Positions 53,044 to 53,711 of a stretch of 64,000 bases of DNA are shown one piece after another. The notes under the pieces are model-generated. The model had not been told where the DNA came from, did no database searches, and saw only the letters and a list, made by a program, of their open reading frames with translations. Every line of letters starts with the position of its first letter. Within the stretch, counting starts at the first letter, position 1. The stretch is from Candidatus Bathyarchaeota archaeon. Its GTDB lineage: Archaea > Thermoproteota > Bathyarchaeia > 40CM-2-53-6 > RBG-13-38-9. A program made the position numbers and the translations under genes. Where the stretch lies: NCBI GenBank assembly GCA_963807605.1, contig CAWECG010000002.1, forward strand, positions 1-64,000. The letters are read 5' to 3'.

Positions 53044-53335
53044 GGAGGTTCCCTTACGGCTGCAAACCTCAAACTGATCGAGATCAACGGTGAACAGTAC
53101 ATCTTCGAACATATAATTGCTCAGCCTAACTGAGGCTGACACCAATCATATTAATTCCCAAGAACCAGTAGGAGCCGTAGGCCTCCACAATCCCTCATTA
53201 TACCGAGCCAATCTTTTTATCCTCAGAAGGCTTGCGTTTCAGACCTTAATGTCTATTGGCTTGCAAGAATAGAAAGGCCGTAACGCAACACATTTATTTG
53301 GATTCTTGTTTGAGTGACCTCTGGGTCCCGCGGAT

Positions 53336-53549
53336 CCCGCGGTAAGATGTAAATCAACATCCCGTAAGCTCAGCTTGGTAGAGCTTCCGATCACGCCAAT
53401 AACGTGAGGAGACGCTGTAGAGTTGCACCTAGTGTGCGACCGTTCAGCCTATCAGGCTAACACAGATACCGGAGTGTCGCTGGAGAGCCCAAAGGACTCG
53501 GCGAATTCAAAATAGGCAGTTGCCTATGAAACTCCGGCCCGCGGGACCA
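53336..53549 (+). tRNA. tRNA-Tyr(GTA) with five BHB introns
   Basis: Exons 53336-53344, 53368-53389, 53414-53420, 53468-53483, 53506-53511, 53533-53549 join to CCCGCGG TA GCTC AGCTTGGTA GAGC T TCCGG CT GTA GA CCGGA GTGTC GCTGG TTCAAAT CCGGC CCGCGGG A CCA (77 nt, full cloverleaf, C1-G72/A73). Confidence 0.93.
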
Positions 53550-53711
53550 CACCCTTCTTAATGTAAGAACCATCTCAGCCACAGCACGTGAATTCTGACC
53601 AAGGTTCTCCGTCAATTGTCATCTCGCCATCCGAAGAAGCGCGCCGGTCTAGATCTTCCTGCAACAATAAGCTGGGGCAGCACAAAACGTTTTGATCCAG
53701 TGTTAGGAGTG

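Follow-up and report, generated by a model that had tools for sequence, protein, structure and literature searches.

How a precursor tRNA divided into six exons, two of them 6 and 7 nt long, might be reassembled, and whether its introns must leave in a fixed order, is the question raised by a single locus in a Bathyarchaeia genome. An earlier note on this DNA had proposed that the micro-exons imply a sequential splicing pathway served by a broad-specificity splicing endonuclease. Here, that proposal is weighed against the structure of the intron motifs, their conservation among relatives, the splicing enzymes encoded in the genome, and predicted folding energies.

A tRNA-Tyr gene in six exons

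Positions 53336-53549 on the forward strand of the window (the whole 64,000-nt stretch that was analysed) constitute a tRNA-Tyr(GUA) gene with six exons and five bulge-helix-bulge (BHB) introns. In tRNA numbering, the introns are located at 9/10, 30/31, 37/38, 53/54, and 59/60, with lengths of 23, 24, 47, 22, and 21 nt, respectively. Neither ARAGORN nor Rfam reports a tRNA in the unspliced window, and a permissive Rfam scan of 53300-53580 returned two chance-level matches and nothing else. Joining of exons 53336-44, 53368-89, 53414-20, 53468-83, 53506-11, and 53533-49 yields a 77-nt RNA that ARAGORN identifies as tRNA-Tyr(gta), with a full cloverleaf, a C1-G72 pair, a TTCAAAT T loop, and an encoded CCA. 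The C1-G72 pair is typical of archaeal tRNA-Tyr. Exon joining and the ARAGORN result thus bear out the micro-exons of 7 nt (GCTGTAG) and 6 nt (TTCAAA) described earlier. The exons and the upstream element are as follows:

53293..53299, forward strand: TATA-like putative promoter element TTTATTT, kept in 14 orthologous loci whose flanks diverge
53336..53344, forward strand: exon 1, tRNA positions 1-9 (ARAGORN on the spliced RNA; invariant in orthologues)
53368..53389, forward strand: exon 2, positions 10-30, comprising the D arm, 26, and 27-30 (ARAGORN on the spliced RNA; orthologue alignment)
53414..53420, forward strand: exon 3, the 7-nt micro-exon GCTGTAG, positions 31-37, with the anticodon GTA (invariant across all orthologues)
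53468..53483, forward strand: exon 4, positions 38-53 (ARAGORN on the spliced RNA; orthologue alignment)
53506..53511, forward strand: exon 5, the 6-nt micro-exon TTCAAA, positions 54-59 (in every gene with both T-arm introns, 64 of 99)
53533..53549, forward strand: exon 6, positions 60-73 plus the encoded CCA (ARAGORN on the spliced RNA; orthologue alignment)

The TTTATTT element sits about 25-30 nt upstream of the leader, and its retention among the orthologous loci suggests that it acts as a promoter element. Within the genome (2.65 Mb on five contigs, 94% complete, with only 19 Rfam tRNA matches), the exact Tyr exon strings, namely the 22-nt D-arm exon and the 3' exon, occur at this locus only, and the five-intron gene is the sole tRNA-Tyr gene found. 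A second candidate, reported by ARAGORN (option -i) at C3:354582-354686, was rejected based on its G1-C72 pair and long variable arm, which mark it as a class II, Leu(CAG)-like gene. This class II gene carries an intron near the D stem.

Structure of the five intron motifs

Every junction displays a 4-bp central helix (H) and two 3-nt bulges, with the cut falling after the second bulge base, and in all five introns the inner helix (h') begins directly after the 5' bulge. With h denoting the outer helix, the H/h'/h lengths in genomic context are 4/5/0, 4/5/2, 4/4/1, 4/3/0, and 4/6/0 for introns 1-5. When intron interiors were shuffled, the combination of H = 4 with h' of at least 3 arose at P values of 1.4e-4 to 1.3e-3 per intron, or about 6e-18 jointly. 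The introns are listed below, with their positions in tRNA numbering in brackets:

53345..53367, forward strand: intron 1 (9/10), 23 nt, HBh'; H GCGG/CCGT, h' GATGT/ACATC (H 4, h' 5)
53390..53413, forward strand: intron 2 (30/31), 24 nt, HBh'; H CTTC/GGAG, h' TCACG/CGTGA (H 4, h' 5)
53421..53467, forward strand: intron 3 (37/38), 47 nt, hBH-like; H CTGT/ACAG (h' unconserved, inner hairpin covaries)
53484..53505, forward strand: intron 4 (53/54), 22 nt, HBh'; H CGCT/GGCG (H 4, h' 3, and h 0 in every context)
53512..53532, forward strand: intron 5 (59/60), 21 nt; H TTCA/TGAA, h' TAGGC/GCCTA (three h' pairs compensatory)

The motifs of introns 1 and 4 are already formed in the minimum free energy (MFE) structure of the precursor. 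Four h' pairs are compensatory in each of introns 1, 2, and 4 in the orthologue alignment, and the H of introns 2 and 4 is 100% paired; intron 2 also has an h of 2 in every splice context. In intron 3, h' is paired in only 66.7% of cases in orthologues, and a separate inner hairpin covaries. Since its inner helix is unconserved, intron 3 is hBH-like in most relatives and dependent on the anticodon stem; judged from the alignments, it is the only intron of this type in most of them.

The motifs extend into the exons and, in part, into one another. In exon 3, G31 doubles as the third bulge base of intron 2, while CTGT and the following AG supply the H and a bulge of intron 3. As had been pointed out previously, T53506 is both the third base of the intron 4 3' bulge (53504-06) and the partner of A53530 in the intron 5 helix TTCA/TGAA (53506-09/53527-30). 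Likewise, the anticodon stem is indeed contiguous only without intron 2, where TCCG (53386-89) and G53414 pair with CCGGA (53469-73). Without intron 2, intron 3 has an outer helix of 6 bp in place of 1 bp, and removal of intron 4 lengthens that of intron 5 from 0 to 5 bp, in the form of the T stem; introns 1, 2, and 4 gain no outer helix when other introns are removed. A strict hBHBh' motif, with an outer helix of at least 2-3 bp, is not present in the precursor (h = 0, 2, 1, 0, and 0) and is seen only for introns 3 and 5, once their upstream neighbours (introns 2 and 4) have been removed, with intron 5 becoming canonical hBHBh' only upon loss of intron 4. The observation that most motifs lack an outer helix therefore stands, but the label "hBH" that had been attached to them does not, as H plus h' alone constitutes HBh'.

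Conservation among relatives

A DNA search of 60 related genomes recovered the locus in most. Thirteen orthologues share all five introns, and in the resulting 14-row alignment the exons are almost invariant. The proposed helices are 96% paired, versus 37-41% when partners are slid, and 18 pairs have changed on both sides, versus 6.6 in shuffles. Pairing in the H helices reaches 96-100%, and 3-4 compensatory pairs are seen in each inner helix of introns 1, 2, 4, and 5. Intron 3 lacks both helices, inner and outer, in the precursors of 12 of the 14 five-intron family members.

The comparison was extended by spliced alignment of 47 loci from genomes and 80 from metagenomes (L001-L047 and L083-L162). 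Metagenome contigs were scanned with one pattern spanning all four T-arm splice states; the matches were DNA contigs of at least 1 kb only, and these served as extra orthologues. Clean motifs were obtained for 99 Bathyarchaeia tRNA-Tyr genes in 15 intron configurations, although these genes, like the orthologues, are relatives, and gene counts are not independent. Introns occur at 9/10, 22/23, 30/31, 37/38, 44/45, 53/54, and 59/60 only, aside from one gene with an apparent 38/39 intron, probably a 37/38 intron placed wrongly. The 37/38 intron is universal among the 99 genes, and micro-exon sizes are fixed at 7 (31-37), 7 (38-44), 9 (45-53), and 6 (54-59) nt. Both T-arm introns are present in 64 genes, 59/60 alone in 15, and 53/54 alone in none. 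This co-occurrence suggests that new introns are placed 6-7 nt upstream of existing ones, but the pattern may stem from a few events only, given that the genes are related.

Several apparent introns of relatives, at 45/46, 49/50, 63/64, 64/65, and 40/41, had an H of 2 or less and were excluded as alignment artefacts. Similarly, a pair of 36-nt and 12-nt introns in eight environmental genes reflected a misplaced micro-exon, owing to a second TTCAAA; six of these genes were re-checked and corrected, and the two at contig edges were excluded by alignment score. In L083, L088, L101, L131, L135, and L160, this second TTCAAA, identical to the micro-exon, lies in the intron 5 hairpin loop, and only BHB geometry tells which copy is the exon.

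These data bear on the simplest alternative, namely that the locus is a decaying or unexpressed gene copy whose introns are irrelevant to splicing. At 94% completeness, another gene could be missing from the assembly. Against this stand the invariant exons, the compensatory helix changes across 14 to 99 genes, the conserved TATA-like element upstream, and the finding of no other tRNA-Tyr in the genome, all of which make decay a highly improbable explanation.

Predicted long-range pairings in the precursor

Two further elements are predicted to connect distant parts of the precursor:

53323..53335, forward strand: 5' leader; its segment 53324-53333 (GGTCCCGCGG) can pair with the 3' acceptor strand plus CC (53539-53548)
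53445..53458, forward strand: conserved intron 3 element CAGCCTATCAGGCT, which pairs with the D loop/D stem (53372-53381) and the micro-exon (53414-17)

The leader is a copy of the acceptor 5' strand and forms a 10-bp helix with the 3' end in the precursor MFE structure. This helix is 96.9% paired in 13 distinct orthologues; it is nearly invariant, and hence offers no covariation. The intron 3 element is divided in the MFE structure, with 53449-58 pairing with 53372-81 and 53445-48 with 53414-17. Across 71 distinct Bathyarchaeia tRNA-Tyr genes, the pairs of the intron 3 element with the D loop/D stem and the micro-exon are formed in 93.7-97.9% of cases, six cells have changed on both sides (versus 0.8 in shuffles), and the "loop" positions of intron 3 vary almost solely by pair-preserving transitions. 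The pairing is predicted to form in 64 of 70 precursors, is also kept in genes with 37/38 as the sole intron, and is predicted not to interfere with motifs 1, 2, 4, and 5. With the 37/38 motif, however, the pairing forms a pseudoknot, and this crossing accounts for the predicted cost of that motif being the highest of the five. Complementarity between intron and D loop is absent from the other tRNAs of the same genome, and by this measure the pairing appears specific to tRNA-Tyr within the genome. In most orthologues, an ACA triplet follows the conserved intron 3 hairpin (53458-53465; GGCTAACACAG).

The pairing between intron 3 and the D loop may serve for tethering, for timing, or as a modification signal. 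In this genome, removal of intron 2 lowers its predicted stability, with the cost rising from 0.1 to 2.0 kcal/mol. Release of the clamp by intron 2 removal was rejected as a general rule, being weak across 70 relatives (0.34 to 0.72 kcal/mol).

Splicing enzymes encoded in the genome

The genome encodes two EndA paralogues, a 188-aa alpha and a 175-aa beta, together with one gene for RtcB. The best PDB matches of the alpha subunit are Sulfolobus tokodaii 2CV8 (E 1e-38), Aeropyrum pernix 3P1Z_B (E 3e-37), and Pyrobaculum aerophilum 2ZYZ_B. It retains the catalytic His, the residue that is Ala in the mutant chain of 3AJV, and its GIPKPKP segment aligns with DVEKPRG of A. pernix, placing Lys at both K44 and R46 of the Crenarchaea-specific loop (CSL). 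The beta subunit possesses both domains at full length and is devoid of the catalytic His. Among 30 records of EndA relatives, 29 are labelled Bathyarchaeia or Bathyarchaeota and one is labelled as an Acidiferrales bacterium.

In A. pernix EndA, the CSL and K44 confer broad substrate specificity, and CSL-bearing EndAs cut bulge-helix-loop and off-position introns (PMC3241643). The need for a broad-specificity endonuclease, and the suggestion that EndA subunit architecture be determined in the genome, have thus found an answer at the level of sequence: a catalytic alpha subunit of crenarchaeal type that carries the specificity-loop Lys, accompanied by a non-catalytic beta paralogue. As predicted from these genes, a crenarchaeal-type (alpha-beta)2 EndA would cut the relaxed HBh' motifs, and RtcB would join the exons.

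Folding energies and the order of intron removal

To compare motifs, a core consisting of H, the six unpaired bulge bases, and two h' pairs was forced, and ensemble free energies were compared over all partly spliced states; the nearest-neighbour energies used ignore tertiary folding, modifications, and protein binding. In the full precursor, the cost of forming the core is 0.2 kcal/mol for intron 1 and 2.3 kcal/mol for intron 4, both of which are present in the MFE structure, and 5.0, 9.6, and 6.1 kcal/mol for introns 2, 3, and 5, respectively. The cost for intron 3, otherwise the highest, falls to 3.4 kcal/mol when the h' constraint is dropped. Pairwise coupling between the five cores is predicted to be about 0, and they are able to form side by side provided that the 3' bulge of intron 4 gives up T53506 and is one base shorter. 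Of the earlier claim that both T-arm motifs cannot be fully formed at once, the base common to both is real, but the cores are otherwise able to coexist. Since the cores are predicted to be independent, and two motifs need not co-occur in time, the micro-exons and the shared base alone force no order.

Context, by comparison, has systematic effects across relatives. Removal of the 53/54 intron lowers the cost of the 59/60 motif from 5.1 to 2.2 kcal/mol, and does so in 56 of 56 distinct genes. Conversely, the 53/54 motif becomes harder to form after 59/60 removal in 50 of the 56, and in 54 it costs less than 59/60 in the precursor. At the anticodon arm, the 30/31 motif is cheaper than 37/38 in the precursor (67 of 70 genes) and harder to form after 37/38 removal (63 of 70), while the gain for 37/38 from 30/31 removal is weak, at about 1 kcal/mol in 45 of 70 genes. 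With every other intron removed, intron 2 costs 8.4 kcal/mol in the five-intron family, up from 4.9 kcal/mol. The predicted drop in cost after removal of a neighbour is 1-3 kcal/mol. Taken together, the predicted energies suggest that the order is a preferred, kinetic one set by context, and is not strictly forced. Sequential splicing, as proposed earlier, is thus retained to the extent that context favours an order, and loses its original premise, in that micro-exons by themselves do not imply one. A plausible preference, as predicted by these energies, would see introns 1 and 4 leave early, followed by intron 2, intron 5 after intron 4, and intron 3 last.

Two opposing readings frame this conclusion. 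According to the first, there is no meaningful order, and the introns are autonomous HBh' hairpins cut stochastically by a broad-specificity EndA; a motif would need six exon bases upstream and one downstream, and 6-7-nt exons would simply represent minimal spacing. The near-zero coupling of the cores and their ability to coexist fit this reading, as does the presence here of H = 4 and h' of at least 3 in every intron, intron 3 included, and the acceptance of bulge-helix-loop and off-position introns by CSL-bearing EndAs (PMC3241643). On the other hand, the predicted costs of the motifs lie 3-9 kcal/mol apart and respond systematically to removal of a neighbour (in 50-56 of 56 and 63-67 of 70 genes), the inner helix of intron 3 is unconserved, such that most relatives need the anticodon stem, and two-sided cutting of a micro-exon ahead of ligation would leave an unheld 6-7-nt RNA. 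Moreover, the independent BHBs of Cyanidioschyzon merolae, the sole system tested experimentally, are still processed in order (PMC3728597). We consider stochastic cutting unlikely, albeit a serious contender.

The second reading holds that the order is strictly obligatory, as in nested introns, with intron 5 leaving only after intron 4 and intron 3 only after intron 2. T53506 is unpaired in one motif and paired in the other, introns 2 and 4 split the outer helices of introns 3 and 5, and intron 3 is without both of its flanking helices in the precursors of 12 of 14 family members, as one would expect. However, the motifs need not co-occur, each core can form with its neighbour present, the costs amount to a few kcal/mol and are not infinite, and there is no true nesting, as no strand of a central helix is interrupted by another intron. 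A strictly obligatory order is accordingly quite improbable.

The reading that we favour, and regard as probable without being secure, is a functional tRNA-Tyr gene whose five introns are spliced in a context-dependent order by (alpha-beta)2 EndA and RtcB. The order, the fold of the precursor, and the tethering role of its pairings are what we infer from the predictions above; the following scheme is conditional on them. The precursor is probably not a cloverleaf and would resemble intron hairpins set in a row, which two long-range pairings hold together, one between the leader and the 3' acceptor strand and the other between intron 3 and the D loop. The ready-made motifs of introns 1 and 4 would be removed early, and intron 2 would be cut best before the tRNA body closes. 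Once intron 4 is lost, the T stem would close and serve as the outer helix of intron 5; closure of the anticodon stem upon loss of intron 2 would provide that of intron 3. A downstream intron would thus keep a tRNA stem open for its upstream neighbour, and the maturing stems would compete against introns 2 and 4. Intron 3 would leave last, as its D-loop pairing must also melt. A micro-exon whose two sides were cut ahead of ligation would become a free 6-7-mer; cutting and ligation on one side first would therefore be the safe route, and the 7- and 6-base pieces would never be released.

Four junctions are diagnostic of the partly spliced states:

TTCCGGCTGTAGAGYTG: intron 3 retained after removal of intron 2
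GGAGAYGCTGTAGACCGGAG: intron 2 retained after removal of intron 3
GTCGCTGGTTCAAAATAGG: intron 5 retained after removal of intron 4
GGCGAATTCAAATCCGGCC: intron 4 retained after removal of intron 5

A bolder version, which we put forward only tentatively, is that pre-tRNA-Tyr, instead of forming a cloverleaf, is a dedicated splicing scaffold with two clamps, the leader on the 3' end and intron 3 on the D loop and micro-exon, in which each excision closes the stem that licenses the next cut. The clamps would hold the six exon pieces and present the five intron hairpins, and the anticodon intron would leave last. If true, the scaffold would amount to a built-in RNA assembly line that is conserved across Bathyarchaeia.

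Other tRNA genes of the genome

A tRNA finder anchored on an intact D or T arm yielded about 22 credible genes; its false positives included long "introns", and the catalogue is partial and provides examples only, not totals. Two of its genes, for tRNA-Leu(TAG) and tRNA-Arg(CCT), carry the 30/31 and 37/38 intron pair around a 7-nt anticodon exon, and a tRNA-Ser(GGA) gene carries a similar pair around an 8-nt exon. Loss of the other intron extends the 37/38 outer helix of tRNA-Leu(TAG) from 1 to 6 bp. The three loci are:

C1:490648-490781, reverse strand: tRNA-Leu(TAG)
C3:712616-712719, reverse strand: tRNA-Arg(CCT)
C3:1145313-1145427, forward strand: tRNA-Ser(GGA)

Of 12 multi-intron tRNA genes that were reconstructed, 11 encode CCA immediately behind the discriminator base. 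An apparent six-intron tRNA-Thr(TGT) was rejected as a misreading by the finder of a repeat of about 340 nt with a T-arm-like segment. The repeat, which may be a tRNA-derived mobile or repeat element, is present in at least five copies:

C1:359532-359870: repeat copy
C1:382318-382656: repeat copy
C3:247283-247621: repeat copy
C3:1079182-1079520: repeat copy
C4:42378-42716: repeat copy

Significance

Archaeal tRNA genes contain "up to three" introns according to the tRNAscan-SE 2.0 paper (PMC8450103), and a gene with five introns and 6-7-nt exons pushes this known limit of tRNA gene fragmentation. The host lineage is abundant in sediment and soil, and standard tools miss most of its tRNA genes. 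The 99 natural variants, in their 15 configurations, represent a conserved substrate set for the handling of adjacent motifs by EndA and RtcB, and the same set is suited to testing whether RNA folding alone orders a multi-step maturation. Since ordered processing of BHB motifs is an established principle, the value of the locus lies in the extreme case and the comparative data, and not in a new mechanism. The predicted order is reasonably viewed as a kinetic preference and not as a logical necessity.

Comparison with known systems

Ordered and nested BHB splicing has already been published (PMC8450103, PMC3728597, PMC3978253). Our literature search found no paper on tRNA introns in Bathyarchaeota and no report of four or five introns in an archaeal tRNA gene. 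The closest genes are the multiple-intron tRNA genes of Thermoproteales, as described by Sugahara 2007/2008 to the extent cited in PMC4090602 and PMC8450103. Like them, the Bathyarchaeia gene has BHB or relaxed BHB introns, several per gene and at non-canonical positions, belongs to a Thermoproteota lineage with an alpha/beta EndA, and is missed by standard tRNA finders. It differs in its five introns, its Bathyarchaeia host, and its exons of as little as 6 nt, and in the recurrence of the 30/31 plus 37/38 and 53/54 plus 59/60 pairs across 99 genes.

Nested archaeal pre-tRNA introns with an obligatory order have been described by Sugahara 2007 and Tocchini-Valentini 2009, as relayed in PMC3978253, PMC3728597, and PMC8450103. 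In both cases, introns lie close together and the removal of one alters formation of the next motif. Unlike the nested introns, as far as those accounts portray them, only outer helices and one base are shared here, making the dependence graded and not absolute.

The enzyme most closely resembles the (alpha-beta)2 EndA of A. pernix (PMC3241643; PDB 3P1Z), with which it has in common the loop Lys and a separate beta subunit. The beta subunit here, however, is full length and, in sequence, resembles the EndA of M. kandleri and M. jannaschii more than it does crenarchaeal beta.

Finally, the order itself has a parallel in the red alga C. merolae, where RT-PCR showed that the independent BHBs of pre-tRNAs leave in the order of motif free energy, with 37/38 last (Soma 2013, PMC3728597). 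Both systems feature autonomously folding BHBs, with 37/38 also predicted to leave last here from folding. The algal genes are eukaryotic and nuclear, with at most three introns, whereas the present gene is archaeal and combines five introns with micro-exons.
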